IMG/VR virus record: IMGVR_UViG_3300042259_000159
Origin: a virus
DNA: 64,000 nt
Strand: one strand, 5' to 3'
The number at the start of each line of letters is the position of its first letter. Positions within the stretch are counted from its first letter, which is position 1. Made by a program: the position numbers and the translations under genes. The notes under the pieces were generated by a model, which worked only from the letters and a program-made list of their open reading frames with translations, did not search any database and had not been told where the DNA came from. Below are positions 3,715 to 64,000 of this stretch, in pieces.

Positions 3715-4268
3715 TCTTCTCCCACCACCTCTTTGATGTAGTTAGCATAGAAGTTGTCTGCCACAATAAACTTTTCTTCATCAATATCTGCCACAGGCAT
3801 AGTCCGATAGAAAAGACTCCGCTCCCCAATAGCGAATTCCCTATGGAAGGCTATGCTTCTTCTTCGAGAACGGTCTTTCTCAAAGCATTCTTCCACCGTA
3901 GGGTAGTCGGCTATAATGGTCTTTGCCAAGTCTCTTACATTGGGTTGAGCACTTATCCCTACATAGTTGGAACGAAGGTCCAGACGGTCAAGAACCAATC
4001 CTTGCTTCTGCTTCCGATGGGGCCAGCGAGCCACATACATTGAGACCCCAACTAGGGTGTTCACATAGCCCAAAGGAGGAGAGGCAAAGTCCCATCCCTC
4101 ATCCCTAATGTGGATGCGAGCATCTTCTCCTTCTTCATCAAGAATGTCATACCCATTAGCAAATCCATCTTCCACATGCCGGATGTAGAAGGGGCTGCCA
4201 TTATACCTCACTACCGTTCCTGCCAGACGCATATTAGCGTCATGGTCGTTATTAAATTTCAACAGCAT
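3702..4268 (-). CDS. hypothetical protein within amidoligase cluster
   Basis: Track ORF 188 aa; overlaps neighbours by a few codons, consistent with operon packing. Confidence 0.5.
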   Translation of the reverse strand: MLLKFNNDHDANMRLAGTVVRYNGSPFYIRHVEDGFANGYDILDEEGEDARIHIRDEGWDFASPPLGYVNTLVGVSMYVARWPHRKQKQGLVLDRLDLRSNYVGISAQPNVRDLAKTIIADYPTVEECFEKDRSRRRSIAFHREFAIGERSLFYRTMPVADIDEEKFIVADNFYANYIKEVVGEEWLK

Positions 4269-5043
4269 GGGGCACTCCCAGATTGTACTTCTTAATAAGA
4301 GCGACTGCCGAATCTACATCCGAAGTGTTGATGATGTTGGTGATGTCTCCCTCTTCCTCAGCCAAGTCTCTTCCTGCAAGCAAGTCAACAACAGCTTGTC
4401 GGGAAGCGGAGAACACCCAACGCATCAGACGCTCTTCTTTAAGCCAAGCATTGGACAGAGTGCGATATTCCATGCCGTAAGGCTTAACACGAAAAGCCCC
4501 TGCCTTCCCGTAGAGTTCTCTCCTTTTGGTGTCCTTGTCGAACAGAAGAGAAGGCAATCCAAGGTAGAAATCCAGCTGCCGTGCAAGCTGACACGAAGCA
4601 AGGAAAGCTCCGAAGTCGTTCACATCATGCTCCATATAGCCGATATGAACATGCCCAGCAGCAGTGCGGAAGTCTCGATTACCGTCAGGAGAAGGGTTGA
4701 TGTCCTGCGTCCACCCATTGTAGTCGGGGTCACACCCCAATTCAAGAGCGGCAGGAGGCTGAGTAGCCATATACTCCTTGCCAAAATGAGCCACAGGCTC
4801 AATGACAATTTCCTCCTTCACCATACGACGAAGCTGAGCGAATACATGCTCAATGTTGCTGACGAAGGTGTTTTCATCAGCTGCCGGCTCAATGTTAAAC
4901 TCAAGAGCCATACCATCCACCTGTACAGCCCCCTTCTCAACAGGGAAAGGGGCTTCCTTAGTCCCGGGAATGAGGCCGTAGCCGGAGATGAACTTCCCAT
5001 TGTCCTTCACAAACAGTTCGGGGTCGGTGCCAATGTATATCAT
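4252..5043 (-). CDS. hypothetical protein, possible second COOH-NH2 ligase-like enzyme
   Basis: Track ORF 263 aa (MIYIGTDPELFV...AAGHVHIGY). Sits between the amidoligase-like gene and the amidotransferases. Family assignment tentative. Confidence 0.4.
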   Translation of the reverse strand: MIYIGTDPELFVKDNGKFISGYGLIPGTKEAPFPVEKGAVQVDGMALEFNIEPAADENTFVSNIEHVFAQLRRMVKEEIVIEPVAHFGKEYMATQPPAALELGCDPDYNGWTQDINPSPDGNRDFRTAAGHVHIGYMEHDVNDFGAFLASCQLARQLDFYLGLPSLLFDKDTKRRELYGKAGAFRVKPYGMEYRTLSNAWLKEERLMRWVFSASRQAVVDLLAGRDLAEEEGDITNIINTSDVDSAVALIKKYNLGVPHAVEI

Positions 5044-5054
5044 GTTATTCCTCC

Positions 5055-6266
5055 TTAAAAGGGTATATTAGAGTCATACAGGGAGACAAAGTCTTTGTCT
5101 TTCAGGCATTCCAAACAAACAGAATCGTATTCCGAGATGATTGCGATTTTCTCATTCCTCTCATAGAACTTCCCGCACCAGTCGCAGGAGTGGTAAGGGT
5201 GATGCGGGTAGCTTATCTTATACTCAATCTTAGGGGCTTCTTCCTCCTTCTGATTGATGGGAATGATGGAACCCACAGTGAAATACGTCTTCTTGTCGAG
5301 CGTTTGCCCGATGAACAATATCTTTGCCCGAAGGGGGACGCCCACAGGAACATCCGAGTTGCCATATGCGAAGTGACGAGCTTCAATATCCTCTCCAATC
5401 ACCTCACCGAAGTAGTCGACATTCTTCCCATATGTGCTTTCCCTTTTGTGGAACTTCACAGTGGCATACTCATCTTCTCGATAGGTGCGAAGATTCCCCA
5501 CTGCTTTTCGTGTTGCCCTCTCCCAATTATTCCACCCTTGGTGGATGTACGTTGTCTTGACAGGAGGCGTGTACGAGCAAGGAGTGAGCTTCTTGGTAGT
5601 GAGTTTAAGGCCGTTGCTCAAGTTCCACGAGTAGAGAACATTTTCTTTCACTTCGCAAGCTTTCATGCAGGGTATTTTGTTTCTCCAACATGCCGCATGA
5701 ATGAAGAAAGGCTCAGAAGCCCAGAACACCACCTTCTTTTCTTTGTCAAGCATATAGTAGAGAGGCCGCTTATCGTTCCGCAGCATGTTGAGCGTGTCTT
5801 CGTTTTCGTCATACCAGACAAGAGCAGCTGCCCCGCAAAGATTCTGCCAAGTGTCTTCCACACCATGTATGGACATATGGTGGTAGATGTTGGAAGAATC
5901 AACATCGAATTTCTTGTAATCCGCCAGAAGATGTTGGGCTGTAAGTGTTCCGTTATGCACTCCTGTAATGTGCCCATGCTGAAACGGATGAGCGTTTTCC
6001 TCGATAATAGTTCCTTTCGTTGCTGCTCTATTATGCCCTATAAGGCATTTCAACACTTGTGAAAAGATAGGCTGTACTTTACCAATGGTGACAAAGTCAT
6101 AGGCTGCCAGAAGAGATTTTTCGATAGTGACTTTCTTCGTATGGCGATTTACTCCAGCGAGACCCACGGAATCAACTCCGCGTATTTCGTCAAAGATGAG
6201 CATATCCTTGACTGCCTTCTCCTCTTTCGTTGTAATCAGTCCAGCTGCTCCAATAATACCACACAT
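5055..6266 (-). CDS. class II (Ntn-type) glutamine amidotransferase domain protein
   Basis: Track ORF 403 aa. Starts MCGIIG, i.e. Cys immediately after Met as in Ntn amidotransferases. Confidence 0.7.
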   Translation of the reverse strand: MCGIIGAAGLITTKEEKAVKDMLIFDEIRGVDSVGLAGVNRHTKKVTIEKSLLAAYDFVTIGKVQPIFSQVLKCLIGHNRAATKGTIIEENAHPFQHGHITGVHNGTLTAQHLLADYKKFDVDSSNIYHHMSIHGVEDTWQNLCGAAALVWYDENEDTLNMLRNDKRPLYYMLDKEKKVVFWASEPFFIHAACWRNKIPCMKACEVKENVLYSWNLSNGLKLTTKKLTPCSYTPPVKTTYIHQGWNNWERATRKAVGNLRTYREDEYATVKFHKRESTYGKNVDYFGEVIGEDIEARHFAYGNSDVPVGVPLRAKILFIGQTLDKKTYFTVGSIIPINQKEEEAPKIEYKISYPHHPYHSCDWCGKFYERNEKIAIISEYDSVCLECLKDKDFVSLYDSNIPF

Positions 6267-6391
6267 AGAATACTCCTTTTTCGCACAGAAAAGGGGTTTT
6301 AAGCCCCGTTTATTTGTTTTGTGGACAATGAGATGTCATTGCATCTACCATCGCTTAGAACCAATTCTCGAAAGAATTGGCTCCAAGAGGG

Positions 6392-7006
6392 TTAGATGCC
6401 GAATACATCCTTCAGTACAGTGAAGAACAGCGTTCGAGTGTCATCCTTCCCACCATATTCAGGATGGGGTTGGAAGCACAGGCTCTTAGTCTTCGGGTAG
6501 ACGACAATTTCAGCTTGGTCGTCACGAAGAACAGAGCGCACCCTTCTTTCAGCCGAGAGAAGAGTGTTGTCGATGCAGTCTTCCACTTCTCCGAATCCTT
6601 CAAGACGACCATGACGGGCAGGAATCATCATCTGGTGGTGAGTGGAGGTGACTTTGTACTTTTCTCCCCTCCAATCGAGAGTGTGTGTGCCTCTGATGGC
6701 ATGACCCGTGACATCCTGCCGCATACTTCCACCATTCATCACATTGAGGAATTGCCCCCCACGGCATATTCCCACCAATGCTGCGTTGTGTTGTGTGGCA
6801 AAGAGGTAGTTGGTTATGTCAGCAATGTCTCGCTGAATACAATTATGGGAAGCCCTGTTGAGTTCACCATACAGAGAAGGGGTGACATCATATCCGCCAG
6901 AGAACACAAAGAGGTCAGCTTCCTCCATCTGTGTTGTCATCTGGTAGCCTGCATTGAGGAACATGGTGGACACAGCAATGTCTTGCGTAGACATAAAGAA
7001 TTTCAT
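6392..7006 (-). CDS. class I glutamine amidotransferase-like protein (gamma-glutamyl hydrolase type)
   Basis: Track ORF 204 aa. Nucleophile elbow GICRGGQ. Confidence 0.7.
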   Translation of the reverse strand: MKFFMSTQDIAVSTMFLNAGYQMTTQMEEADLFVFSGGYDVTPSLYGELNRASHNCIQRDIADITNYLFATQHNAALVGICRGGQFLNVMNGGSMRQDVTGHAIRGTHTLDWRGEKYKVTSTHHQMMIPARHGRLEGFGEVEDCIDNTLLSAERRVRSVLRDDQAEIVVYPKTKSLCFQPHPEYGGKDDTRTLFFTVLKDVFGI

Positions 7007-38157: not shown

Positions 38158-38502
38158 ATGTTTCCTATCAAGATGAATGTCAAGCATTTTTATGCCGCCA
38201 GAAAAGCGTTCCTGCATGCATTTATGCGCCACAACAACCCCGACAGTATATTCGACGAGACAGATTGCGCGATCAATGCCGTAAATCGTGAAAGAATCTA
38301 TAAAAAAAGAGAAAAGGACGCGTTTGTTGTTGGATTTCTTGCGTTTTTGTCTGATATTGACAATATCAAAGAGCTGTACAGACAGCACGGGGAAGATGCT
38401 GTTATGAAGACTTGGCTAGTAGACAAAAAACTGGTGCTTACCGGTGACGAAGATATGATAGACGATGTTCTGTATAGGGTAGGGCTCAAGGTAGCTAAAT
38501 AA
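38158..38502 (+). CDS. hypothetical protein
   Basis: Track ORF 114 aa with RBS agagaggt. Confidence 0.4.
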   Translation: MFPIKMNVKHFYAARKAFLHAFMRHNNPDSIFDETDCAINAVNRERIYKKREKDAFVVGFLAFLSDIDNIKELYRQHGEDAVMKTWLVDKKLVLTGDEDMIDDVLYRVGLKVAK

Positions 38503-39119
38503 TCAAAAAACCTCAAAACAACATAAATAACAGGAGCACACTATAACTGACCGCACATTCTTTATCCACCTTATATCCGGCCACGTTGCTACGCTCGAAG
38601 AGTGGAGGGCAGACTATAAGTCAATGGATGCAGAACTATGGCACGGCAAGCCCGCTGAAGAGTGCAACCCTGATGAATGGCTTAAAGACGGCCTCCTTGA
38701 GGAATATGAAGCGGATCCCAACGAATAAAGCAGTTACACCACAGAGGCACCTATGAGGTGCCTCTTCTTATGCCTACTAGCGCCGTTATCAGGGTAACGG
38801 CAGGAATCAGCGGGAAACATGTATATAAGGAAAGAAAAACTAAAAGATAACCTAGGACATACGTAAGAGGTAAAAAGCATTAGAAGGCGCATAAGGGGCA
38901 CTAAATATGCCCCTTATTTGTTTGTGTGTCTAATAGGCTTTGTGTGTGCAAAAAGGCTTGTATAGCGGCTTTATCATGGAAGCCGCGCATACAGGCAAGG
39001 CTTTTAGCACTATATATGCACAGATACGGTGTATCCGTGAATATGGTTAATAATCTCTAAATACCTGCCCGAAAGATATGAAATATCTTGAGGGGGGAAA
39101 CACACAATAATCCTCCTGT

Positions 39120-39370
39120 CAAGTGTTACTGATTTTGAATATCATTATCAATGGAGATATTGTCATTGAACAGCATAACGCTGTTATACACACGGATCAA
39201 TTAATTCCCATCGATCAGCATTTCGCTGGTGCTGCTGGAATCAACACTTGTTGAGATAATGACATCCATTATCAATGCTGTTCAATGGCCGTTTTCAACG
39301 GCAATGTTTCACGTGAAACATTCCTGATCAGAATACTGGCAAGAAACATTGATAACGACAATCTTTATCA
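39120..39370. repeat. palindrome/repeat cluster in large non-coding region
   Basis: Repeated cattatcaatg units, palindrome gtttcacgtgaaac, and gttgataacgacaatctttatcaac inverted repeat. Confidence 0.4.
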
Positions 39371-39442
39371 ACGTATCTGGCGATCCTTTCAGGTTAACAC
39401 AAATCTGGAAGAAAGTAAAGTAATATAAATTTTAATAAGGGG

Positions 39443-39471
39443 TTGACATCTTCCTGATATTTTGATATTAT
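39443..39471 (+). promoter_or_regulatory. sigma70-like promoter
   Basis: TTGACA, 17 nt spacer, TATTAT. Confidence 0.35.
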
Positions 39472-39967
39472 AGAAAGAGAGGCGTATGGGGAGGGGGGAG
39501 GCCTTAAGCACCGGTATACTTATATACCAAGTACCCCTATAGGTTCATGCCGGATATTTGCCCAAGTACCCCTATAATGGTATACCGATATACTTATACA
39601 CACCATATCTGCACACAGAAGGTATAGGGGGATATTTCCTGCTAGGATATTTCCACACAAAAAGGGGGAGTATATGGGAGGGATATTCCTGAAGGGAATA
39701 GATATTTTAGACAGGTATATATATATTATCTCTATGCTATATATACTCTATATATGTATATTCCATATATACATATTTCTTCTTATTCTATTCTTCTATT
39801 TCTACTAATGAGATATATACATATTAGGACAGCATATGCATGTGTCTACATCACATGTAGACACATATATACACATTCCCTTTCCTAACGGACAGCCGTA
39901 TTATAACATATTTTTTGGATTTTGTCAAGAACTTTTTTGTATTTCACATGGAAAATATTTCATACCG

Positions 39968-40085
39968 GCTATTCCTTTTGGGAATAGCCTATTCCATTTT
40001 GGAATAACCATTCCTAGGGGAATAGCCTGTTCCCAGAGGGAACAGACATACCCGAAGGGAATAGATATGCCCATTGGAAATAGCA
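39968..40085. repeat. array of GGAATAG-containing direct and inverted repeats
   Basis: gggaatagcc, ggaatagcctattcc, gaatagcctgttccc, gggaatagatatgccc, ggaaatagc within about 120 nt. Confidence 0.45.
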
Positions 40086-40414
40086 AAAGCCCACACACCT
40101 GTAAAGATATGTGGGCTGATAACATTAACAGTGTTAATAACATTAGCGAAGCTAATAATATTTTATCCTATCAATCAATACCTGTAGCTACGTGATCGAG
40201 GCAGAGCACCTGTGGTCGAGGTAGAACACCTTGCCAATGCAGAAGGTATGCCCTTCCTTCATAATGCGGAATGTTGCTTGCATGGGCACATTTACCTCCA
40301 CTACCCACTGGATGCCTTGTTCAGGCCAGAAACTCAAGCTGCCGTTAAACTCAAAAGGCTTTGCTTCACAACCCTTCACAGCGGTATTTATCTCTTCCAT
40401 ACCATCTTCACCAG

Positions 40415-41269
40415 TCATGACTCCACGGAATCAAGCAAACTTGGCTGCTTATTTCTACGGCTAATAGCCTCGGCGTCTAGCCGCTTAGCGATTATCTCGC
40501 AGTACTTTTCTTCGCGCTCTATCAGGATCCAGCGGCGGCTAGCACGCTCGGCTGCAACTGCTGTTGTGCCGCTGCCCGCGCAGAAATCAAGCACTGTTTC
40601 ACCTTCGTTGGTGTAGGTTTTGATGAGGTATTCCATTAGGGCAACAGGTTTTTGGGTTGGATGGAGTGCTTCAGAGTCTTGGCTAAATTTAATAACACCG
40701 CGAGGGTAGTTTGTAAATTCTTGTTTATAGCTTTCAGATTTGGTCAGATCATTATGTACACTTGTCCTATCCCCATTCTCTTTTAGAGAATCCTTCCGTG
40801 TCTTTGTCCCCGTGTTTTTTACCACCTTGTCCACCTTTACAAGCCCCTGCGCGTTATAAGTTGGCTGCTTGCGGTAGAATACAAGCACGTCCTCAAATCC
40901 TTTTAGCGGCATCCTTTTGGCATTGGGGAAATTTGTTGGACGACCTTTCTCCCAGACCCATGTGTATTTAAGCATTTTGAGATTACTAGCCCCCAAAAGA
41001 CTTGTAAACGGCTGGCTAGCAGTCATAACAACAGCCCCACTAGGCTTGATAGCCCGCTTCAACTGCTCCCACATTGGCTCTAGCGGAATAATGCTATCCC
41101 ACTTACACGCCGTCATTCCAATTCAGCCGTAGGGTGGATCGCATAACACCAGGTCTATAGAGCCGTCTGGGATATATTTCATAACCTCAAGACAATCTCC
41201 ATGAACCAACGTGTTAGGCAATACGCACCCTACGTGCTGTATCTCCTTTTCGTTAGTTATAGTAAACAT
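40415..41269 (-). pseudogene. beta-class N6-adenine/N4-cytosine DNA methyltransferase interrupted by an in-frame TGA
   Basis: Upstream segment MFTITNEKEIQHVGCVLPNTLVHGDCLEVMKYIPDGSIDLVLCDPPYG ends at TGA (41123-41125), then continues in the same frame as track ORF 40415-41116 (HPTQKP, DFCAGSGTT). Confidence 0.6.
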
Positions 41270-41811
41270 TAAATAAAATACTCCTGTATGTTTAGTTTCA
41301 AATTATTCCAATCTGTTTGTGTCATATCATTTTTGCACCTATTTTCAAACCACGACAAAAACTGCAAGTTTTCTATGTCATTAGTTCCTCCTTTTGCTTT
41401 TGGTGTTATGTGGTCTATTGATGGCTTTTTGTATTTTTCTTTACCGCCGCTAACCCATCTTTCATAAATCCTATTAAATTGATCGTCATAGTAAAACCTA
41501 CTTATATAACTTTTGTACCATTCAGTTGATATGTCCCATCTGCCTGAACGATTCGTAATTACATCATTTAACAGCTTTAATTTATCAAAATCCTTAAACT
41601 GCATTAACCAATCAGTCGTTACGTCAAACCTCAAGTGTGTTGCCATGTTGTTATAATTGCGCTCAATATCACAATTAAATTTTTTAACACCTCTTAGATT
41701 CTTGGGCTTTCTGGTCTGTACCCCATTTCTCTTCAGGATTCTTGATATTAGTTTGTGATTAGTACCTAGCTTATCCGCTATAGAGCGCATTGAATCGCCA
41801 CTTTTGTACAA
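41269..41811 (-). CDS. HNH homing endonuclease with N-terminal helix-turn-helix
   Basis: Track ORF 180 aa; HNH core SIDHITPKAKGGTNDIENLQFLSWFENRCK; lies between the two methyltransferase genes. Confidence 0.7.
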   Translation of the reverse strand: MYKSGDSMRSIADKLGTNHKLISRILKRNGVQTRKPKNLRGVKKFNCDIERNYNNMATHLRFDVTTDWLMQFKDFDKLKLLNDVITNRSGRWDISTEWYKSYISRFYYDDQFNRIYERWVSGGKEKYKKPSIDHITPKAKGGTNDIENLQFLSWFENRCKNDMTQTDWNNLKLNIQEYFI

Positions 41812-41816
41812 TTCAA

Positions 41817-42218
41817 CTAATGGATAAATAGGTAATCCCCAATCTCCTCGGGGCGTTTAGCATTTTTTACCTGCTCATTATAAGGAAGAACCAAGAGTTC
41901 ACCAACAGCATCCCTTTTGGATACAGGCAGTTTTTCTTCCAGCCGTTTTTGCATAGACTCGGAGTCCATTCCCATCAACAGCTCAAAAATCTCCAAATCT
42001 TTTAGACGATTATCGGTGGCAGGTAGAAGCGATCCAAGTATACAGGCTTTATTGAGTATCAGGGGTTTGCGCCCTTTCCAGTAACTGCCAAGAGCGGTCA
42101 ATGTTTTGCTCTGAACAGCGCTCTGTTCTTTAAAACTTTCAGCGGATATTTTTTGCACTGGAAAGAGATGTTCAATCAGTGCCGGTTTATCTTTCCATTC
42201 GAACGGTTTCAGTGCCAT
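41817..42218 (-). CDS. hypothetical protein
   Basis: Internal Met (MALKPFEW) of track ORF 41817-42293; overlapping ORF 42218-42448 in another frame leaves the start unclear. Confidence 0.35.
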   Translation of the reverse strand: MALKPFEWKDKPALIEHLFPVQKISAESFKEQSAVQSKTLTALGSYWKGRKPLILNKACILGSLLPATDNRLKDLEIFELLMGMDSESMQKRLEEKLPVSKRDAVGELLVLPYNEQVKNAKRPEEIGDYLFIH

Positions 42219-42592
42219 CAGATATCTCCCTTTTCTATAAATCCAACAAGAGGAAGGACTTCTTGTTTTGCTTGTATATTGTACATCTGGCAAAGATCAG
42301 TAAGATTGTCAGAAGATGTAACCCACTTACCAACCTGATTTTTGACATCGAAAAAGGTAACACCCTTATTGTGATTGCATGGTAAGAGGTTTTCAAAAAG
42401 ATTATGGCACCCCCTTAAGGAGGGCTTTTGTATCATAACACCTTCCACAGGTGGGACAAAATATTAAACTGGTTAGTTCTGTTTGGTGTATAGTCATCAA
42501 CACACCCTCCCATCACTTGTCATTTGCTTGCTCCTCTGTGTTTTTTGTATGGTTTTATAGCCTCGGCATCGCCCCTGCTTTCTGCCCATTGC

Positions 42593-43417
42593 TTAGATGA
42601 TTGCTTTATTCTCATGTGCACTCTCAATGCGCCGCTTGGCAATGTTGAAATAGCCTTGGTCTAGCTCAATACCGATAAAGCAGCGGTTCAGCAGCTTGGC
42701 CATCTTGCCAGTCGTACCGCTGCCCATGAAGGGGTCGAAAATCGTATCGCCTTCGTTTGACCAGCTTGATATATGTCTTTGCGCTAATTTTTCAGGAAAA
42801 ATTGCAGGGTGCTTAAACGCCTCACTATCCATTGTTGAGTGACCTTTACCTGTCGTTATGTACCATATATTTCCATCTATCTTATCTAATCCAACTGGTT
42901 TCCTTTTCTTGCCACTTCTGGCACTGCGCATTTTTTCAGTTGTAGATGAAAAATAACTGTTCTGACGTGAAGTTTCTTTTTCCGGATATTTTGTCGGAAC
43001 TCGAATGGCGTTAAAGGTTTTAGGTCTACCCTTACTAAAAACAAACATATACTCAAAATCTTGTTCGTATCTGTTGTGGTTTTTCGGTAGTGCGTTTTTA
43101 TGGTATATCATCGTATCATGCAGCCGGAAGCCGCACTCCATAGCCCACAATGCTTGCTTAAAGCTAGTACCTGTCTCACTACCCTTAATCGTGGCGTCAC
43201 CAACAACCCAAACAACAACCCCACCATCTTTAGTAACACGGTATAGGTCTTTAATAACCGCCTTCCAAACATGCTCTCCCCACAACGCATTATTGCCGTT
43301 ATAAGTGCGCAGATTATCGTATGGTGGGCTTGTTACCGTTAAATCAACAATACCATCAGGTATTTCTTTCATCCGCTCAAGGCAATCGCCTAGCATCAGC
43401 TTAATCATCATCACCAC
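42593..43417 (-). CDS. beta-class N6-adenine/N4-cytosine DNA methyltransferase
   Basis: Track ORF 274 aa; motif IV SPPY near the N-terminus, HPAIFP, motif I DPFMGSGTT near the C-terminus. Confidence 0.8.
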   Translation of the reverse strand: MVMMIKLMLGDCLERMKEIPDGIVDLTVTSPPYDNLRTYNGNNALWGEHVWKAVIKDLYRVTKDGGVVVWVVGDATIKGSETGTSFKQALWAMECGFRLHDTMIYHKNALPKNHNRYEQDFEYMFVFSKGRPKTFNAIRVPTKYPEKETSRQNSYFSSTTEKMRSARSGKKRKPVGLDKIDGNIWYITTGKGHSTMDSEAFKHPAIFPEKLAQRHISSWSNEGDTIFDPFMGSGTTGKMAKLLNRCFIGIELDQGYFNIAKRRIESAHENKAII

Positions 43418-43634
43418 CCATCAGCCCGTCAAACAAATCATCGGTATATCCTTCAATTTTCCCTTCAATATGCCCATCAATCCATGCCCCACCGTATGTT
43501 TTAGGGTAGGGGCTAGTAACACCTTCTAGCTTGTTACGGCTATCCTGTTCACAACACAAGGGGATGTACTTGTTCTGTTCATTTTCACAATCCACCTCAA
43601 TCACATATCTCATGATTTCTCCTTTTATTCGCTC

Positions 43635-44351
43635 TTATATTTCCGAAAGACGCTTGTTTCCCCTGAACCTTTTACCTTCCGAGTAATTTATTCTCTCCTC
43701 AAGATCAAGCATCCTCGCCCACAATTCCGGCTTATTATTTTTAACAGCCAAAAGGCTGTCCAAGGGTTGAAGGGGGCAGCAATAGCAGGATACCCTATTC
43801 ATGTGTTTGTAGAGGCCCCCCCAATCAAAGCCCCTATCATAGCAGTATTCAAGGGCTGATTTTTCGTCCATATCCCACTCTATCAAAGGAAAACGAAGAA
43901 TCCATCCATGTTTTTCAGCATTAGCATTCATTGTTCTAGAGAGCGCCCTCTCTGATTCATCTTTTGCAAAGCCAATACACTTAACAATGTTACCATCTAT
44001 TTTTTTATAGCTCATCCCCCTCAAATAGTAATCAAAAGCTTTTATCTTTTCTCTTGTACACCACCTTCTAGACGGTGATGGCCATCCAACACCACGGCAC
44101 CTTACTTCTTTAGTCCCCCTAGAGACCACTTCGTGCTCCGTAAGCCAATAATCAAAGGGTTTGTTTGGTTTGAGTATGGTGATTTTGCGAGAAATATAGT
44201 CTTCAACCTTTTTGATATGATCATACATCTCGGGAAATTCCCAACCTGTGTCAAACATAACAATGTCTTCAATCTTTTCTCCACATTCAATGGCCTTCAA
44301 AAGCATTGCTGTAGAATCCTTTCCCCCGCTAAAACTAAAAAATTGTCGCAT
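43635..44351 (-). CDS. PAPS reductase-like / PP-loop ATP pyrophosphatase family protein
   Basis: Track ORF 238 aa; PP-loop FSGGKDS at N-terminus and C-terminal Cys cluster CYCCP. Confidence 0.65.
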   Translation of the reverse strand: MRQFFSFSGGKDSTAMLLKAIECGEKIEDIVMFDTGWEFPEMYDHIKKVEDYISRKITILKPNKPFDYWLTEHEVVSRGTKEVRCRGVGWPSPSRRWCTREKIKAFDYYLRGMSYKKIDGNIVKCIGFAKDESERALSRTMNANAEKHGWILRFPLIEWDMDEKSALEYCYDRGFDWGGLYKHMNRVSCYCCPLQPLDSLLAVKNNKPELWARMLDLEERINYSEGKRFRGNKRLSEI

Positions 44352-48848: not shown

Positions 48849-51800
48849 CTAAATGCTTTTATCTACAAACTTTCTCTGTGGAAAATCAAATTCCCGCCTT
48901 GTTTTATTCCAAGCTTTTACGGGTGTAAAAAACCCAACAACCCTTGTCAGCTGTGTACTTATATCTTCCGAACATATGGGGCATGTACTGAAGGAACCCA
49001 TAGAGACATGGGAGTTGATACACTCAGAGTATACGGTATTAATGGCAAAATGTTCACATCCACAACCCAAAGCAAAACAGATAATTTTCTTGGCCTGCTC
49101 TCTTGTCAGCCTCTGCCCGACAGTGGCATGAACAATCCCCCCGCCTGTTAGGTTTTTAGTATATTCTCCGTCAATTCTGAGCCTGTCCCACAGAGATGCC
49201 TCTTCCCACAAAGGAACAAACTGGTTTGCATAGAGAGGGTATTCTATAAAAGTATCGCCGTGAATGATCTTATCTGCGCTGCAAACTTTTACAGCCATAC
49301 TCTCTGCTGGGATTTGCTCAATGTTGAAGACATATCCTGCGTTCTTCTTGGTATACAATCTAGCTTTTCTGTTAAGAAATGTCAAGATCTTTTTCTTCAA
49401 ATCCCCCTCAACACCGAACCTTTGTTTAAGAACCTTTTCACACTCGTAAAGACCAAGAATACCAAACGTTGAAAAGAGCCTGTTGAGGTCTATCCACCCA
49501 CGCGTTATAAAAGGCTGAAGACCTATTTGTTCAAGGACATGAATCAAGACCTTATGAGCAATCAGAATATCTTTAGCAGCCTCTACACGGTACGTGTATA
49601 TTTTCCAAAAATCATCAATACTCTCGGCCTCAATTGCCATCTTGTTGAAATTAAGAGTAACAACTCTATGGCTCCCGATGCTGGAAAGAACACCGGCACC
49701 GAAAGAATTGGAGGTGGATGCCACATCTAACATCTCTTCATCATTGATCAATCGGCAACAGCTAGCGATCTTTGTGCTCTCAGATGTGAAAATATTGTAG
49801 CGCGAAATGTCTCTATTAAGAAATATTTCCAAACTCTCTTCGTCTGCAAGGATGTAATCATCGCCGTCCTTAGTTTTTGAAATGTTCATCGTGCAAACAG
49901 GGAACCTGTAAGGCATCCCGTTATTTGAGGGATCTCCTTTATCAAAGATGTCTAGGAATATTTCCTGCAATTCAAAAACATAGTCAACACACTCTTCTAT
50001 ATCTACAACACCACCATCTGAAAACATCCACAAAAGATGTTCCTTTATGATGTACCTGAGTTTGTGTTTATCAAACACCGATACATTGGTAAAGGGACTC
50101 TCAACTCCGTCACGACTCAAATGGTTTACGCTGTGAATAAGCTGTTGAAACTCGTTTTCTATCTCTTTCCTCACAGCCTTATCGTTTTTAAGCACATCAA
50201 GGGGAACCTTATTCTTTATCATGAGAAGGTGAGCAACATCTATAAATACAGTACCTATGGCTAGAGCACCAGCAACATGCGATGACATTTGGTGGATTGT
50301 CTCACACAGGGCGGCAATATAACTATTAACTCTTTTTGCCGGTTTAGAGGGCAATACTCCAAAAGTTCTTCCTTCTGTAATGAGATTTGTTGCGTTTAAA
50401 GAATAACAATTATGTTGCACCATTCCGTTTGCATAAAAACGGCCCGTTGCTGTTGTCAAATCATATACGTCTTGAAGCTCCTCTCTAAGCTTTCTTGTAC
50501 TAGGAATGTCTTCAAGATTAAACCTGATGATTTTTACAACCCTGTTGCTTTCGCCCTTGGTGTTTGCTTTTTCATTATACTTATCATAGTCTTCTTTATG
50601 CATCTTCATCTTATCAGAAAGATCAACCATCTTATTCGTACTTGACGGGACAAAGGAAAGGGCATAAATCGAATTAGAAATATCACTCCCTTTTATCCTT
50701 TTTCTAAGGCATCGAATACCTTCAATGCCTCTAAGGACGTCATAAAGTGTGTTTATTACTGCCATAGACTGCAAACAAATCTCCACCCTGCCATTCTTTT
50801 TGTAGGTATATCCGTCCGCGTCTACAAGCCCCGCAACAAGTGCCTCTACAGAATCATTTGTCCAAGAGAGGATGTTCTTAGGAAGAACCTTTGTGAAGCT
50901 ATTTTCTTTGTTCCCGAAACCAAAAAAGGCACTTACAAGAAAATTCATATCATAAGAAGACCAATTAATCTGTCTCTCGACTTTATCACTGGGCTTAAAA
51001 AGATTCGCATCAGGAAACAAGTCTTTTATGATACTATAAATTCTTGAGTTATCAATATCGTTTTGATAAACACTGCAAAGCGTTCCCCCTCTTGTAAATC
51101 TGAAAGAGCCTTTTATGTCCTTACCGTTCATTACGCCATCATCAACACAATACCCTTCAAAGTTCCCATCACCAAGCATAAAGCCAAGAAGGTAGGCCAG
51201 CTTTTCTGGAACAATTATTGTTTTTTCCACGGAGGGCAAACAAGTCTCTGTCAAAACAGCATCCCCAACAGAAAGTTCTGAGGCTATTTTTTCAGTTCCA
51301 TCTTCCATATAGATTGGGTGGTTGTCTGTTACCAAAGCAAAGTGCCCTGCCTCTGTCTGATACAAAGAGAATCCTGTATCCGTTTTATGCTTGATAATAC
51401 GTTGTACAGCAACCCATCCATTGTTTGTATCCCAAACCTCTATATTAACTTTTTCACTCACATTGCAGGCCAACTTACCGGAACGACCTTTTGCGGTGTT
51501 CTTGTTAGTGATGTTCGCACTCACATTATTACGCAGCATTGCTGTTGTAATCTCTAGATCTCTTGTAAGGCCTTTTGTGTTAATTTCCTCATGCGTACCC
51601 CTATTTTCGGAGTGTATTGCAAACATATTGAAAAGCTTTTTAAGAGGAATACAAATAATCTCTCCGTTAATTCTGACAAAAACAGGCGTGTTTCCATAAT
51701 ACGAATATGGAAGGTTTAGCTTCGTGCTGTCGGAGATGGGAAGACTGAAATCCAACATTTCTCCTATAAGCCTTTTAGCCCTCTTCTTGCCGTAGAGTTC

Positions 51801-52151
51801 CTTCATAACACGGTAGAGGAAATCGTACCCTGCAATTTTTTTCTGGGGGGCACTTGCCTCACTCTGTATTCCGGCAATTGTCTTCTCATTCTTATTAGCA
51901 TTGTCATCAATAGAGACATCATTAATGTTTGCATTTAATTGTTTTTGAAACATCTTGAGAAAGTCTGTATTGTCCTGCGAAAGACCATGCAGACGCATAA
52001 GTTTTTCAGCTTTTGTATCAATCTCTTCTTGAGAAAGGGTTGTTTTACGAGAAAGATTCCTTTTCAAAGCCTTAAGCATCTGTTTCCGTGTGTATTCAAT
52101 CTCAGCATCATTTGTAAAAGATGAAGAAAAACCTTTAGCTATGCTATTCAA
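48849..52151 (-). CDS. nrdD: anaerobic ribonucleoside-triphosphate reductase (class III) carrying an intein
   Basis: C-terminus has four-Cys zinc ribbon (CINSH...CPIC) and glycyl-radical motif TRVVGF...WNKTRREF. Start uncertain: track begins at TTG 52220; TTG at 52151 after AAGGAG is preferred here. Confidence 0.8.
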   Translation of the reverse strand: MNSIAKGFSSSFTNDAEIEYTRKQMLKALKRNLSRKTTLSQEEIDTKAEKLMRLHGLSQDNTDFLKMFQKQLNANINDVSIDDNANKNEKTIAGIQSEASAPQKKIAGYDFLYRVMKELYGKKRAKRLIGEMLDFSLPISDSTKLNLPYSYYGNTPVFVRINGEIICIPLKKLFNMFAIHSENRGTHEEINTKGLTRDLEITTAMLRNNVSANITNKNTAKGRSGKLACNVSEKVNIEVWDTNNGWVAVQRIIKHKTDTGFSLYQTEAGHFALVTDNHPIYMEDGTEKIASELSVGDAVLTETCLPSVEKTIIVPEKLAYLLGFMLGDGNFEGYCVDDGVMNGKDIKGSFRFTRGGTLCSVYQNDIDNSRIYSIIKDLFPDANLFKPSDKVERQINWSSYDMNFLVSAFFGFGNKENSFTKVLPKNILSWTNDSVEALVAGLVDADGYTYKKNGRVEICLQSMAVINTLYDVLRGIEGIRCLRKRIKGSDISNSIYALSFVPSSTNKMVDLSDKMKMHKEDYDKYNEKANTKGESNRVVKIIRFNLEDIPSTRKLREELQDVYDLTTATGRFYANGMVQHNCYSLNATNLITEGRTFGVLPSKPAKRVNSYIAALCETIHQMSSHVAGALAIGTVFIDVAHLLMIKNKVPLDVLKNDKAVRKEIENEFQQLIHSVNHLSRDGVESPFTNVSVFDKHKLRYIIKEHLLWMFSDGGVVDIEECVDYVFELQEIFLDIFDKGDPSNNGMPYRFPVCTMNISKTKDGDDYILADEESLEIFLNRDISRYNIFTSESTKIASCCRLINDEEMLDVASTSNSFGAGVLSSIGSHRVVTLNFNKMAIEAESIDDFWKIYTYRVEAAKDILIAHKVLIHVLEQIGLQPFITRGWIDLNRLFSTFGILGLYECEKVLKQRFGVEGDLKKKILTFLNRKARLYTKKNAGYVFNIEQIPAESMAVKVCSADKIIHGDTFIEYPLYANQFVPLWEEASLWDRLRIDGEYTKNLTGGGIVHATVGQRLTREQAKKIICFALGCGCEHFAINTVYSECINSHVSMGSFSTCPICSEDISTQLTRVVGFFTPVKAWNKTRREFDFPQRKFVDKSI
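50409..51467 (-). mobile_element. intein with LAGLIDADG homing-endonuclease domain inside nrdD
   Basis: In-frame insert with block B GHFALVTDNH, two LAGLIDADG motifs (LLGFMLGDGNF, LVAGLVDADGY), C-terminal block VYDLTTATGRFYANGMVQHN followed by Cys. N-terminal boundary (CNVSEK vs earlier Cys) uncertain. Confidence 0.6.
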
Positions 52152-52659
52152 AGCAGTAAACTCCTTCTTTTGTAAGTTTAACATAATTATTATTATAAAG
52201 TTCTTGGTTAGACGAACCAAGTACGAGTTTTGTCCTTTGCCCTTTTGTTGTATCTGACTGGTGCAGTTCTTTTATATACTCTCCTGTTTTTATAAATTTG
52301 AAACCGTTAAGATTAAGGTATTTAACAGTGTCAATATCGTATCCAGTATAAATACATATGTTAAAACACCCACCGTATTGTTCTAAGAACTGTGCTGTAA
52401 ACCCTCTGTTGCAGGAGGCTAGCGGATCTCCACCAAGAAGTACAATATTATTTGTGCGGTATTTTAAGGTCTCCTGTTTACAATGGTTGTAGAAGTCTTC
52501 AATGGAAAATTCCACACCACCCTGATATTCAGGGTTTTGCAGGGAGGGGTTATGACACCCCTTACAGGAAAAATCACACCCACACATAAAAAGACTTACT
52601 GCCCACCCATCCTTTGAGGGGTAGTCTGTAAATGTCATCTCAGAACCTGCAAATCTCAT
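52144..52659 (-). CDS. nrdG: anaerobic RNR activating enzyme (radical SAM)
   Basis: Track ORF 171 aa; radical-SAM Cys motif CDFSCKGC (C-x3-C-x2-C) near the N-terminus. Confidence 0.8.
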   Translation of the reverse strand: MRFAGSEMTFTDYPSKDGWAVSLFMCGCDFSCKGCHNPSLQNPEYQGGVEFSIEDFYNHCKQETLKYRTNNIVLLGGDPLASCNRGFTAQFLEQYGGCFNICIYTGYDIDTVKYLNLNGFKFIKTGEYIKELHQSDTTKGQRTKLVLGSSNQELYNNNYVKLTKEGVYCFE

Positions 52660-55122: not shown

Positions 55123-55206
55123 TGGTAGGAGAAGAGAGATTCGAACTCTCAAGGAATAATCCGTCGAGGCTTAAACTCGATGTGTTTACCATTTCACCAT
55201 TCTCCC
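55123..55206 (-). tRNA. tRNA-Leu (anticodon TAA), type II, CCA encoded
   Basis: Hand-folded cloverleaf: acceptor GGGAGAA/TTCTCCT, anticodon stem TCGAG/CTCGA with loop TTTAAGC, long variable arm, T-arm GAGAG-TTCGAAT-CTCTC. Confidence 0.7.
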
Positions 55207-55245
55207 GTATTTTTTATCTACCATTCCGCCATTCCCGCATTTATT

Positions 55246-55323
55246 TGGTACCCACTGTGAGATTCGAACCCACACTAATCAGTTTCTAAGACTGATGCCT
55301 CTGCCAAGTTGGGCTATACCAGT
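55246..55323 (-). tRNA. aberrant tRNA-like gene (anticodon TAG, type I architecture, poorly paired acceptor stem)
   Basis: Good D-, anticodon (TCAGT-CTTAGAA-ACTGA) and T-arms, but 5' acceptor ACTGGTA mispairs with the adjacent 3' strand AGTGGGT. Confidence 0.4.
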
Positions 55324-56574: not shown

Positions 56575-56860
56575 GTTGGTGCAGATTGTGAACGTACCCC
56601 CGCCTATAGAGGCGGAAGCTTCCTGCTTCAGCGAGAACAGCACCAGTAACTCCGAAGAGTTGTGGCGAATTACACTCTCTCCACAGGCGTAAATTCCCGT
56701 GCGACCCACGGTACTTTATGAGTTACGCTAGGCAGATATTCGCCCAGCTTCTTCTCTAATATTTATTGCAGCGTTCTTGTCACGGTTATGATGACTGCCA
56801 CACTTAAGGCAATCCCATTCCCGCACAGACAAGTCTTTGGTATCCTTGTTCTGGTAGCCA
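56575..56860 (-). ncRNA. candidate TnpB guide RNA (omega/reRNA) region at the element right end
   Basis: By analogy with IS200/IS605 TnpB systems the guide RNA overlaps the tnpB 3' end and runs to the right-end hairpin (56600-56615). Not folded or aligned. Confidence 0.3.
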
Positions 56861-57965
56861 CAGACATGGCATAGCTGACTGCTTGGATACCATTTGTCTA
56901 TCTTGATAAGTTGCTTACCCTGCCATGCAAGTTTGTATTTCAGCATACTTGTGAACATGCTCCAGCCGTTGTCGGATATGGATTTACCAAAGTTGAACTT
57001 GCCACCCTTCTTTCGCTTCGCCATGTCCTTTACGCTAATGTCCTCTATGCCAATCACATCATAGCGGTCTGCAAGATAACGAGCTTTCTTATGCAGGAAG
57101 TCGCGGCGTTGATTAGCAATTTTCTCATGGAGTACAGCCAAACGTAGTCTTTGTTTATTCCTATTACGGCTCCCTTTTTGTCTCTTGGAGAGTTTTCTTT
57201 GTGCCTTGATCAATCTCTTTTCGGCTTCCCGTAAGAAATTTGGATAATCGGCGTTGTCCTCATCGGAAGCAACATACATCCCGTGCATAGCAAAATCCAA
57301 TCCAAGAAAATTCTTCGGTATGATGGGAAGTATTTGGTTTTCATACTCCACCAAAATACTAATATAGTATTTTCCTGACGGTGTTTTACTTATGGTTACA
57401 GTCTTTATGGTGCTATTCTCCATCAATGGACGATGCAGACACAGCTTTACCCAACCTATTTTCGGCAGCTTGACTTTGTTTCCCTCGATTCTTACAGAGC
57501 CATGTTGGTTGTTCGTAGAATATGAAGCATGACCCGCTTTCTTCGACTTGAAGCGTGGCTTGCAAAAATGCTTCCTATTGCTCCAAAAGTTGTTATACGC
57601 CTTGTTCAGGTTTATTTGGGCATTGGCGAGAGCAAGGCTGTCAACCTCTTTCAGCCAAGGAAACTCTTTCTTGTACTGTGCAGGTGTGTTGTTCAGCCTC
57701 TCTCCTGTTTCCTTATAGTGATCAAGACGATCTCCAAGCATCTTGTTATAGATGAATCTGGCACTGCCGAAAGTCTTGGCAAACATAATCTTCTGTTCAA
57801 TTGTCGGGTAGAGTCTATATCGGTATGCCTTATTCACTATAATCACCTGCCTTGATTTTCTATGTATTTACGAATTGTCTCAAACGGAGCAATTATCTGG
57901 CTCAACTACTTACGTAAATTCGCTAGACACACCTTCATCCCCCACCTTAGAGGTGGAGGGCTTCT
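56590..57965 (-). mobile_element. IS200/IS605-family insertion element carrying tnpB only
   Basis: tnpB flanked by similar imperfect palindromes: cccgcctatagaggcgg (56600-56615) and ccaccttagaggtgg (57942-57956). No Y1 tnpA. Inserted between tandem tRNA-Leu genes and the rest of the tRNA array. Confidence 0.65.
56728..57846 (-). CDS. tnpB: TnpB (RuvC-like RNA-guided endonuclease, IS605 OrfB family)
   Basis: Track ORF 372 aa; N-terminal YRYRLYPT, RuvC-like region, C-terminal zinc finger CHVCGY...CLKCG. Confidence 0.85.
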   Translation of the reverse strand: MIIVNKAYRYRLYPTIEQKIMFAKTFGSARFIYNKMLGDRLDHYKETGERLNNTPAQYKKEFPWLKEVDSLALANAQINLNKAYNNFWSNRKHFCKPRFKSKKAGHASYSTNNQHGSVRIEGNKVKLPKIGWVKLCLHRPLMENSTIKTVTISKTPSGKYYISILVEYENQILPIIPKNFLGLDFAMHGMYVASDEDNADYPNFLREAEKRLIKAQRKLSKRQKGSRNRNKQRLRLAVLHEKIANQRRDFLHKKARYLADRYDVIGIEDISVKDMAKRKKGGKFNFGKSISDNGWSMFTSMLKYKLAWQGKQLIKIDKWYPSSQLCHVCGYQNKDTKDLSVREWDCLKCGSHHNRDKNAAINIREEAGRISA

Positions 57966-58022: not shown

Positions 58023-58109
58023 TGGTGCCCAATGCAGGACTCGAACCTGCACGCCATTTCAGGCAGGAGGGCTTAAACCTCGTGTGTCTACCAATTCCAC
58101 CAATCGGGC
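58023..58109 (-). tRNA. tRNA-Leu (anticodon TAA), type II, CCA encoded
   Basis: Acceptor GCCCGAT/ATTGGGC, anticodon loop TTTAAGC, long variable arm, T-arm GCAGG-TTCGAGT-CCTGC. Confidence 0.65.
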
Positions 58110-58118
58110 TAAAATCTT

Positions 58119-58202
58119 TGGTGCCTCAGACAGGATTCGAACCTGCACGGATCTCTCCACTTGGTCCTAAGCCAAGCGTGTCTGCCATTCCACCACTGAG
58201 GC
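58119..58202 (-). tRNA. tRNA-Leu (anticodon TAG), type II, CCA encoded
   Basis: Acceptor GCCTCAG/CTGAGGC, anticodon stem CTTGG/CCAAG with loop CTTAGGA, long variable arm, T-arm GCAGG-TTCGAAT-CCTGT. Confidence 0.7.
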
Positions 58203-63350: not shown

Positions 63351-63585
63351 TCAGGAAACATCAAGGGTTAATTAGTAGCCCCTTGTGTTGGTGACAGCGC
63401 AAGCAAACTAACCTAATTCGGTGGAAGCCCAAACATGTAGGATGTGGGTGATACCGAGCAAGCCACGGCGTGTGTAACGACTAGTTCTTAGGAACGTAGG
63501 CCCAAGCGGGTCGAAACGGTTAGCATCTTATTAAGATGAAGATATAGTCTACTCTGCATGGAAACATGCAGCGGACACTTTATGT
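63350..63585 (+). mobile_element. group I intron core (candidate), copy 2
   Basis: R-like gtaacgactagttc (63474-63487), S-like gaagatatagtctac (about 63537-63551), P9-like hairpin ctgcatggaaacatgcag (63553-63570). Confidence 0.5.
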
Positions 63586-63594
63586 GTCGGGCAG

Positions 63595-63860
63595 ATGTTA
63601 GCGCCATCTGTTGAATATTATGTACAATATACCCTGATATGCTTTGATGAGGCAACACATTTCACTTTCCAACAAGTTGAATACTTAATGTCACGTATGA
63701 GAAGTAAAAGTAAGTATGCTTCTCGTATGGTTCTGTCGTGGATTACGCGACATGTATGGCGAAAGCTGTACTGGCAACTGTGTGAACTCAGGGAAACCTT
63801 AGCTGCTGCAATTGGGCAGAGGAAGAAGGCAATCCTGAGCGAAGCCTTCCCACCGGGAAG
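63595..63860 (+). CDS. terL: terminase large subunit, exon with Walker B
   Basis: Walker B ICFDEATHF shortly after the start of track ORF 63595-63888; 3' boundary approximate. Confidence 0.5.
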
Positions 63861-64000
63861 GAACGTGCAACGACCATCGAAAGCGTAACACCTGTTACAG
63901 TGAGTAGAGTACACCACACATGTGTGGTGGAAGCGCACAGCCCCTAACATGTAACGATGAGGGTGAAGATATGGTCTGAACCTACAGAAATGTAGAAAAA
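63860..64000 (+). mobile_element. group I intron core (candidate), copy 3, running off the window
   Basis: R-like gtgcaacgaccatcga (63864-63879), S-like gaagatatggtctgaac (63965-63981), P9-like hairpin ctacagaaatgtag (63982-63995). Confidence 0.45.

Follow-up and report, generated by a model that had tools for sequence, protein, structure and literature searches.

A stop codon behind the catalytic motif of a phage DNA methyltransferase gene belongs to an HNH-linked cassette and may be crossed by a ribosomal hop

The viral DNA of IMG/VR record IMGVR_UViG_3300042259_000159 was analysed as a stretch of 64,000 nucleotides (nt), here called the window, to which all coordinates refer. In the region from 40415 to 44351, where all genes lie on the minus strand, two genes encode beta-class DNA methyltransferases, and the second of them, termed MT2 (40415..41269), is interrupted by an in-frame TGA codon (41123-41125) right after the codons of the motif IV sequence DPPYG. 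The locus raises the question whether this interruption is the mark of a dead gene or a part of the gene that is maintained for a reason. A first-pass annotation had treated the TGA as incidental and had joined the surrounding genes into a DNA-modification module. The genes that it listed were recovered at the same positions on the minus strand with concordant assignments by Pfam, PHROGs, NCBIfam and PADLOC; the TGA, however, is the most informative feature of the region and belongs to a mobile HNH cassette rather than to a modification pathway. The interrupted MT2 does not look like a dead gene, and its gap looks built for a ribosome hop. The best explanation of the sequences, to which we assign a probability of about 0.58, is that the region is a patchwork of accessory genes including a mobile cassette of HNH gene, N-terminal methyltransferase part (N-part) and gap in MT2, and that the gap would be crossed by a Gly-to-Gly hop.

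When joined across the gap, the MT2 sequence matched the N6_N4_Mtase family with an E-value of 4e-31 (109 bits), and its motif order of DPPYG followed by FCAGSGTT is that of the beta class. More than 800 full-length phage methyltransferases can be aligned with the joined protein across the gap without a break, at 50-58% identity. Compared with uninterrupted homologues, MT2 carries a 9-nt insert, TGA ATT GGA, between the codons for DPPYG and TTACKWD. The gene can accordingly be divided into a cassette-borne N-part of 48 codons (41126..41269), which comprises an extension of about 17 amino acids, the residues up to DPPYG and the take-off Gly codon GGC (41126-41128), a coding gap of 9 nt (41117..41125) with the stop codon, a G-free spacer and a landing Gly codon, and a C-terminal part (C-part) of 233 codons (40415..41116), which contains motif I (FCAGSGTT) and is of the N6-adenine type.

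The interruption reported in the first-pass annotation is real, since the sequence of the region recurs with 100% identity in four assemblies (JGI 3300042258 and 3300042268, Logan SRR35174882 and SRR35183615), and it is an insert of 9 nt, not a point nonsense mutation. An assembly error was rejected on the basis of these four assemblies and of a GenBank phage with the same kind of gap; a megablast search of the region against phage records gave no match. A reassigned genetic code was likewise rejected, as all three stop codons are in normal use by the phage, TGA terminates about 20% of its open reading frames (ORFs), including MT2 itself in an ATGA overlap, and no suppressor tRNA was found. 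A group I intron or another known RNA was rejected for MT2, because a search with the Rfam gathering thresholds detected introns only at 63.4-64.0 kb and nothing at 40.4-42.0 kb.

The anatomy of the gap was deduced from a search for DPPYG-coding sequence, followed by 4-34 nt and TTACKWD-coding sequence, which yielded 89 unique junctions from 24 viral and 80 of 110 metagenomic stretches. A stop codon directly follows the Gly codon in 88 of the 89 junctions, and the exception is a plain insertion of two codons. All three stop codons occur at this position (59 TGA, 18 TAG and 11 TAA); selenocysteine incorporation or Trp-specific read-through was rejected in view of the 29 junctions with TAG or TAA in place of TGA. 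The inserts measure 4 nt (3 junctions), 6 nt (11), 7 nt (4), 8 nt (7), 9 nt (55), 10 nt (6) or 11 nt (3), and because their length varies from 4 to 11 nt, the downstream body can lie in any of the three frames: 66 junctions are in frame 0, 13 in frame +1 and 10 in frame +2. When the downstream frame is used, 75 of the 89 inserts end in GGN. The other final triplets are AGC, CGC, TGC, AGT, AGA and GTT, all but one of which (AGA) could form two of three base pairs with the Gly anticodon. In the gap interior, G was found at one of 125 nucleotides, compared with a background of 22.5%. Clustering of the N-parts at 60% identity resulted in 19 families, several of which hold all three frames. Of 63 loci that could be assessed, 59 have an intact downstream ORF, among them 14 of the 15 with an out-of-frame gap (at least 195 codons kept). 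A take-off Gly codon, a slowly decoded stop codon in the A site, a spacer devoid of competing G-rich landing sites and a landing Gly codon that sets the frame are the features that a translational hop predicts.

Additionally, a gap of 5 nt (GGT TG AGC) was detected in six methyltransferase copies of a single cyanobacterial metagenome-assembled genome (MAG) of the Leptolyngbyaceae, CBDHHL01 (L357, L358, L360, L365-L367), each with an intact downstream ORF of 231-237 codons. The six copies suggest a multi-copy element.

A control set of 81 uninterrupted genes with contiguous DPPYG-TTACKWD coding sequence separated the properties of the gapped genes from those of the methyltransferase family. No HNH homologue adjoins any of the 81 control genes, whereas homologues of the HNH protein (34-88% identity) are encoded directly upstream of the gapped methyltransferase in about 44 of the 59 loci for which the upstream DNA is long enough; in about 15 of the 59, the HNH gene is lost and the gap is kept. 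The distance from the N-terminus to the Gly residue has a median of 48 amino acids in gapped and 31 in uninterrupted proteins, and the extension motif VG....N[ST][LI] is present in 48 of 77 gapped and in none of the 81 uninterrupted sequences. Moreover, the ratio of nonsynonymous to synonymous polymorphism (pN/pS) of the cassette-borne N-part is 0.19 at a pS of 0.48, which indicates constraint at the protein level. The architecture, the recurrence and the sequence constraints of the cassette are direct observations, and the stop codon in MT2 is very probably a selected feature of this cassette and not a random lesion.

The HNH gene (41269..41811, minus strand) encodes a homing endonuclease with an N-terminal HTH domain (Pfam HNH and HTH_38, phrog_1035). 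The first-pass annotation had described it as embedded; it lies outside the methyltransferase genes and abuts the start of MT2 via a TAATG overlap. Among relatives in IMG/VR, with HNH identities down to 39%, a homologue of MT2 always follows within about 50 nt downstream (0-3 nt in closer relatives), and the most distant of these relatives (39%, loci L099 and L100) have no gap in the methyltransferase gene. In gapped relatives, the first 48 methyltransferase codons are near-identical and are then followed by the stop codon; near-identical MT2 N-parts are present in at least 31 other loci. Upstream of the HNH gene there is usually a short and different N-terminal methyltransferase fragment that ends near DPP, fused in frame to the HNH gene in one locus, which looks like the remnant of the invaded gene. 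The nucleotide identity between the window and its relatives is high from the HNH gene to a point 270-330 nt into the methyltransferase gene, beyond which it falls. The loci L103 and L105 combine identical N-parts with C-parts that have diverged to a synonymous distance (dS) of about 0.9-1.0. These two observations indicate that the cassette moves between methyltransferase genes. With respect to the window, the predicted mobile cassette is the segment 41117-41819, which comprises the HNH gene, the replacement N-terminus of MT2 and the 9-nt gap after motif IV. In this phage the native start of the HNH protein (MDVDLI...) is replaced by a DUF1156 segment, so that a TTG or an internal ATG remains as start codon, and the nucleotide homology to relatives begins at 41819. 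The loss of the native start suggests that the cassette is ageing here. The interpretation of the HNH protein and the methyltransferase as a restriction-modification pair was rejected, as it is the HNH gene and the N-part that move, the C-part being native in each phage.

A cultured carrier of a gap was identified in the Geobacillus phage vB_GthS_PK3.6 (OP341627, 35900-36677), the methyltransferase gene of which contains an out-of-frame gap of 7 nt (GGT TAA C GGC), lacks a neighbouring HNH gene and is annotated as two coding sequences (gp63 and gp64). The corresponding gene of the sister phage PK5.1 is uninterrupted. The gapped 5' 600 bp of PK3.6 form a patch of 65-70% identity to PK5.1 within surroundings that are 80-100% identical. 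PK3.6 and PK5.1 therefore represent a ready experimental system. In Vibrio phage VnaP (L093, 3786-4730) and Pseudoalteromonas phage H101 (L094, 3778-4600), an HNH homologue is located behind a decayed N-terminal methyltransferase fragment, which ends with ...DLVLTDLP in VnaP. Both loci look like older, degenerated insertions.

We infer a cycle of cleavage, immunity and bypass. The HNH enzyme would cut gap-less methyltransferase genes of co-infecting phages near the conserved coding sequence of DPPYG|TTACKWD, and repair would copy the cassette into the cut gene. As the gap splits the target sequence, the carrier would be protected from its own endonuclease. During translation, a ribosome that has decoded Gly48 (GGC) would meet UGA in the A site; the peptidyl-tRNA-Gly would detach, slide over 9 nt and re-pair with GGA, and decoding would resume at the next codon to give a normal, uninterrupted methyltransferase. 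The predicted product of the hop has the DPPYG|TTACKWD spacing exactly as it is found in gap-less homologues. The balance of the sequence data tips slightly towards a Gly-to-Gly ribosomal hop as the way in which the stop codon is decoded.

This reading has to be weighed against other explanations of the interruption. The insert might be an immunity scar that just breaks the HNH target and kills the methyltransferase, the downstream ORFs being intact through recent invasion. This appears unlikely, even though the cassette is clearly mobile, as seen from the identical N-parts on diverged C-parts in L103 and L105 and from the divergent patch in PK3.6, four of 63 downstream ORFs are truncated and orphan methyltransferases are dispensable, because a scar gives no account of a stop codon, be it any of the three, at the first position in 88 of 89 junctions, of a Gly codon at the 3' end in every frame, of the exclusion of G from the gap interior, of the protein-level selection on N-part and extension or of the persistence of the gap in about 15 loci after loss of the HNH gene. 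A different form of recoding, with in-frame gaps read through by near-cognate tRNAs at the expense of two to three additional residues and out-of-frame gaps served by +1 or -1 frameshifting at a Gly-stop 'shifty stop', is compatible with the 66 of 89 gaps that are in frame, with the synonymous variation of the middle codon (Ile or Leu) in the 9-nt class and with a preponderance of C or A as the base after the stop codon, known as a weak context for termination. It nevertheless seems improbable, since three different mechanisms would be needed for one homologous element. The 23 out-of-frame junctions are beyond the reach of read-through, GGN-U/A is a poor slippery sequence, and no single suppressor tRNA fits because all three stop codons are used. 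Moreover, an insertion into the catalytic loop is not obviously tolerated, as the DPPYG-ACKWD spacing is fixed in gap-less homologues. The least probable of these explanations, with a very small chance of being correct, is a two-piece enzyme formed non-covalently from the 48-aa N-peptide with motif IV and a C-fragment that has its own initiation, like the MobE-split NrdA and gp39/gp60 of T4. Split proteins made by homing endonucleases have precedent (bioRxiv 10.1101/2022.08.31.505936), and the C-part of MT2 begins with ATG (41114-41116), which may allow independent initiation; this codon is found in this phage only, whereas in the other 88 junctions the gap is followed by ACN, which is not a start codon. 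Initiation at the next conserved Met, 14 codons further on, would drop TTACKWD, and the landing Gly codon and the G-free spacer would be left without a reason.

Several observations also weigh against the hop itself. The efficiency of hopping at the synthetic sites of Weiss et al. in 1987 was reportedly low, about 1%, and the hop may take place so rarely that the methyltransferase is all but silent. In many junctions the landing codon is a synonym of the take-off codon, as with GGC and GGA, and 14 of 89 landing triplets do not encode Gly. Almost all gaps of the 9-nt class have NTN as their middle codon, which fits read-through too. RNA folding around the take-off site revealed a weak hairpin of 3 bp only, and no conserved RNA structure was established. 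The ratio of nonsynonymous to synonymous substitution rates (dN/dS) of the C-part is either saturated at synonymous sites or reflects divergence before the invasion, and it is confounded by the mobility of the cassette. Given the mobility of the cassette, an intact downstream ORF could also just mark a gene that was invaded recently. In this particular phage, the lost native start of the HNH gene and the ATG at the beginning of the C-part mean that expression could differ from that in other carriers.

A further alternative concerns the region as a whole, namely that the PP-loop protein gene at 43635..44351 (minus strand), the two methyltransferase genes and the HNH gene form one DNA-modification or anti-restriction module, as proposed in the first-pass annotation, in which the PP-loop enzyme installs a sulfur or base modification. 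The gene content is indeed related to DNA modification, the genes are closely spaced on one strand, and DNA methyltransferases and ParB_N proteins are the commonest identifiable neighbours of PP-loop homologues. The evidence does not extend to a functional module, which has a low probability. In a sample of 115 immediate-neighbour proteins of PP-loop homologues from 59 non-redundant IMG/VR loci, there were five N6_N4 and four C5 methyltransferases (together 9 of 115) and five ParB_N proteins, and most neighbours had no family assignment. The proximity of PP-loop and methyltransferase genes is thus a mild association and not an operon. Neither a cysteine desulfurase nor partners of the DndD/E or SspB/C type were found within about 10 kb of the PP-loop gene, the neighbours of which are AAA_28, small ORFs and methyltransferases without an adjacent sspA, sspB or sspC gene. 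In addition, the unit of HNH gene and MT2 has an independent, mobile history, and the PP-loop family includes NinC of the lambda type, from phages that are not known to hypermodify their DNA. The region is accordingly regarded as a patchwork of accessory genes without a demonstrable single pathway, and nothing ties the PP-loop protein to the cassette of HNH gene and MT2.

The classification of the PP-loop protein (238 aa) as PAPS-reductase-like was borne out by its FSGGKDS motif, the C-terminal RVSCxCCPL motif and a match to Pfam PAPS_reduct (PF01507) with 53.3 bits at a cut-off of 22.5, which places it in the superfamily of PAPS reductases and PP-loop ATP-pyrophosphatases. Its family yielded more than 4,226 matches, representing stand-alone proteins of 240-290 aa with the invariant motifs SGGKDS, FDTGWEFP, RRWCT and, at the C-terminus, RVSCxCCPL; C98, C189, C191 and C192 are the Cys residues of a probable Fe-S motif. 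The protein matched the NinC-like 'PAPS reductase' profile phrog_424 with an E-value of 1.7e-42, and a tblastn search detected matches labelled NinC or PAPS reductase in 48 phage records, with NinC as the distant lambdoid members. The AlphaFold model is confident (pLDDT 92.8) and shows a generic PP-loop fold that is nearest to Fe-S-containing enzymes, with a Foldseek TM-score of only about 0.5 to CysH. The comparison with DndC, CysH and QueC that the first-pass annotation had suggested gave no fitting family. The curated models of CysH, APS reductase, CysD and DndC were missed by more than 100 bits, with 17 bits versus 165 for TIGR00434 and 17.8 versus 154 for PRK02090 (CysH) and 16.1 versus 290.4 for TIGR03183 (DndC); the ECGLH motif is absent from the 238 residues, dnd partner genes are absent within about 10 kb, and the QueC models gave no match. 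Among the defence models of PADLOC, SspD ranked best (E 1.9e-25; residues 3-230 versus profile positions 2-209 of 277, in a model without a curated cut-off), followed by BrxP (2.7e-10) and DndC (2e-6, covering the N-terminal half only). Among sequences of solved structures, a profile match to the family's C-terminal half was obtained with chain C of PDB entry 21fy ('PptA') alone; this match is marginal (E 1.3e-4), is restricted to that half and includes the region of the Cys motif. A literature search for this entry found no explanatory paper.

Taken together, the protein is probably an ATP-pyrophosphatase like NinC and SspD that carries an Fe-S cluster and acts on nucleic acid. Since SspD is its best defence model, sulfur or adenylation chemistry on nucleic acid is a fair lead. 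It resembles lambda NinC/phrog_424 and SspD, DndC and BrxP in the PAPS-reductase fold, the SGGKDS PP-loop and conserved Cys residues that would suit an Fe-S cluster, and it differs from SspD, DndC, BrxP and CysH in the lack of Ssp, Dnd or BREX partners nearby and of the C-terminal ECGLH of CysH. Phage genes for PAPS-reductase-like proteins are often assigned to sulfur metabolism without evidence, and the label "cysH auxiliary metabolic gene" is common (PMC13369170); this locus gives no support to such a label for the PP-loop gene.

The first methyltransferase gene, MT1 (42593..43417, minus strand), is intact and encodes a beta-class enzyme with motif IV (TSPPY) followed by motif I (FMGSGTT) and matches to N6_N4_Mtase (PF01555; E 7.7e-47, 160.5 bits) and to the orphan methyltransferase model of PADLOC (E 7e-82). 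Many cultured phages encode methyltransferases with 68-70% identity to this protein, some of them annotated as N4mC group beta, and the specificity of MT1 is probably N4-cytosine. MT1 is thus an ordinary orphan methyltransferase that would guard against restriction. Between MT1 and the PP-loop gene lies an ORF of 70 codons with an acidic C-terminus (orf70; 43401..43613, minus strand), which was called as a gene in both the JGI and the Logan contigs and had no match in Pfam, PHROGs, NCBIfam or PADLOC.

The same four collections gave no family match for the 76-aa ORF (42218..42448, minus strand), the first member of what had been listed as an unknown gene pair. Its stop codon overlaps the start of the second member by 1 nt, and only its final 45 nt or so lie within DNA homologous to bacterial DUF3780/DUF1156 loci. 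The second member (41817..42218, minus strand; 133 aa) can be assigned to DUF1156, as it contains the N-terminal helical domain (PF06634, E 1.2e-19) and matches positions 1-85 of 960 in NF042963 (E 1.9e-39) and positions 1-133 of 944 in the PADLOC model DUF1156_MTase (E 5e-70). It is 76-82% identical to bacterial loci at the amino acid level and 71-74% at the nucleotide level, and a tblastn search in 50,697 phage records gave no match. The ORF ends at residue 133 of about 950, reaches 135 bits in NF042963 at a cut-off of 1000 and has neither a methyltransferase core nor partner genes. The DNA homologous to the bacterial DUF1156 loci extends over 41826-42263 and ends where the homology to the HNH cassettes of related phages begins (41819). 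By these matches, the ORF is a putative captured N-terminal fragment of a bacterial BREX-related N6-methyltransferase of about 950 aa, located at the left breakpoint of the cassette; it may be junk caught at the break site or a decoy against a BREX-related system of the host. Type-1 BREX-related systems consist of a DUF499 ATPase, DUF3780, a DUF1156 methyltransferase and a Snf2 nuclease (PMC12839542). The fragment shares with them the conserved N-terminal helical domain and differs in being phage-borne, in its length of 133 of about 950 residues and in the absence of core and partners. Its interpretation as the N-terminus of MT2 was rejected, since MT2 has a complete N-terminus of its own and does not match the DUF1156 methyltransferase model.

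The genome of the source phage is large (at least 117 kb) and encodes ThyX, NrdG, an intein-bearing NrdD, DNA ligase, PolA, a primase-helicase, a CCA-adding enzyme and eight tRNAs. The intein of NrdD, the anaerobic ribonucleotide reductase (48849-52220, minus strand; Intein_splicing match in the JGI and Logan gene tables), is a further mobile element of this genome. Other features of the window include two closely spaced group I introns near the window end (Rfam RF00028, 76-77 bits; 63359-63571 and 63728-63997, plus strand), a gene of the TnpB/IS605 OrfB type (OrfB_IS605 and Cas12f1-like TNB domain; 56728-57846, minus strand) between two tRNA clusters and a second HNH endonuclease gene (HNH_3 and NUMOD4; 464-955, minus strand), which is unrelated to that linked to MT2. 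The tRNA pair Leu(taa)/Leu(tag) is duplicated (55123-55314 and 58023-58202). At 2890-7006 (minus strand), a gene cluster with a raised G+C content of 0.45-0.49 encodes Amidoligase_2, a phiEco32-like COOH-NH2 ligase, a glutamine amidotransferase and Peptidase_C26 and is a candidate for a small-molecule or peptide-tagging pathway unrelated to the MT2 cassette. The stretch 38500-40190, about 1.7 kb between convergent gene blocks, contains no convincing ORF, is dense in short direct repeats and palindromes, e.g. GGGAATAGCCTATTCC-like units at 39960-40068, and may be an origin or a regulatory region.

Natural programmed bypassing in bacteria and phages is essentially represented by one example, T4 gene 60 and its homologues among topoisomerase genes. 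If the reading proposed here is correct, the methyltransferase junctions would be the first natural short-range stop-hops, and a bypassable gap that immunises the target site would be a general strategy of homing endonucleases and no oddity of T4. With graded lengths, three stop codons and varied landing codons, more than 100 natural junctions provide a ready mutational series for the requirements of ribosome hopping. Annotation routinely records such methyltransferases as pseudogenes or as two fragments, with the consequence that the methylomes of phages and their capacity for anti-restriction are under-called. A literature search found no paper on a methyltransferase-linked case of bypassing, although much of the subscription literature was outside its coverage.

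The closest known counterpart of the cassette is the mobA/gene 60 element of T4 (Huang 1988; Bonocora 2011; Manning & Atkins, bioRxiv 10.1101/2022.08.31.505936), where gene 39 and the HNH gene mobA are followed by gene 60, with 46 codons, GGA UAG, a gap of 50 nt and the landing codon GGA. The MobA element brings an N-terminal extension of 44-45 aa and itself ends at or just after the landing codon, the gap and not the polymorphisms blocks self-nicking by MobA, and the cassette has been described as remaining unique (bioRxiv 10.1101/2022.08.31.505936). In both systems the interrupted gene is immediately preceded by the HNH gene and receives an N-terminal extension (44-48 codons) from the element, a take-off Gly codon is followed at once by a stop codon and a landing Gly codon forms the 3' end of the insert. 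Likewise, the gaps can carry stop codons and/or frameshifts, they outlast the loss of the endonuclease in some lineages, and the insert is placed within a very conserved coding motif. The systems differ in the target, which is motif IV of a beta-class DNA methyltransferase here and topoisomerase II in T4, and in the length of the gap, which is 4-11 nt here, 50 nt in T4 and 20 nt in the Aeromonas clade. In the methyltransferase genes, the landing codon is frequently a synonym of the take-off codon instead of the same codon, and the N-part duplicates the N-terminus of the gene itself, whereas the T4 element splits the protein in two. Unlike for the T4 gap, no stem-loop or internal Shine-Dalgarno sequence is established for the methyltransferase gaps. 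The HNH protein has an N-terminal HTH domain and shares with MobA the catalytic motif only (E 3e-4 over 40 aa); the methyltransferase cassettes are therefore regarded as an independent, analogous family. That methyltransferase genes host a second, independent family of bypass cassettes borne by homing endonucleases, with gaps of 4-11 nt and a Gly-to-Gly stop-hop that is possibly primed by the nascent N-terminal extension of about 17 aa, is a proposal for which the chances appear evenly divided.

Free-standing homing endonucleases such as MobE in nrdA and the Seg and Mob enzymes of T4 provide a second comparison. As in these cases, the HNH gene has a conserved target gene as its neighbour, tracts of co-conversion can be seen, and the endonuclease genes degenerate and are lost after fixation. 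The difference lies in the solution at the target, where a micro-gap initiated by a stop codon is found here instead of split-protein assembly or intergenic placement. Finally, the gaps can be compared with the synthetic stop-hops of Escherichia coli (Weiss, Dunn, Atkins, Gesteland 1987), in which a stop codon stands between matched codons and 9 nt correspond to one amino acid (PMC5009743). Shorter natural counterparts of bypassing have long been presumed, and no natural in-frame stop-hops were known at the time of a 2016 review (PMC5009743). The variants GGT TGA GGA and GGC TGA GGC among the methyltransferase genes, with 11 unique junctions, have the same arrangement; in contrast to the engineered sites of low efficiency, these sequences are natural, conserved and linked to a mobile element.

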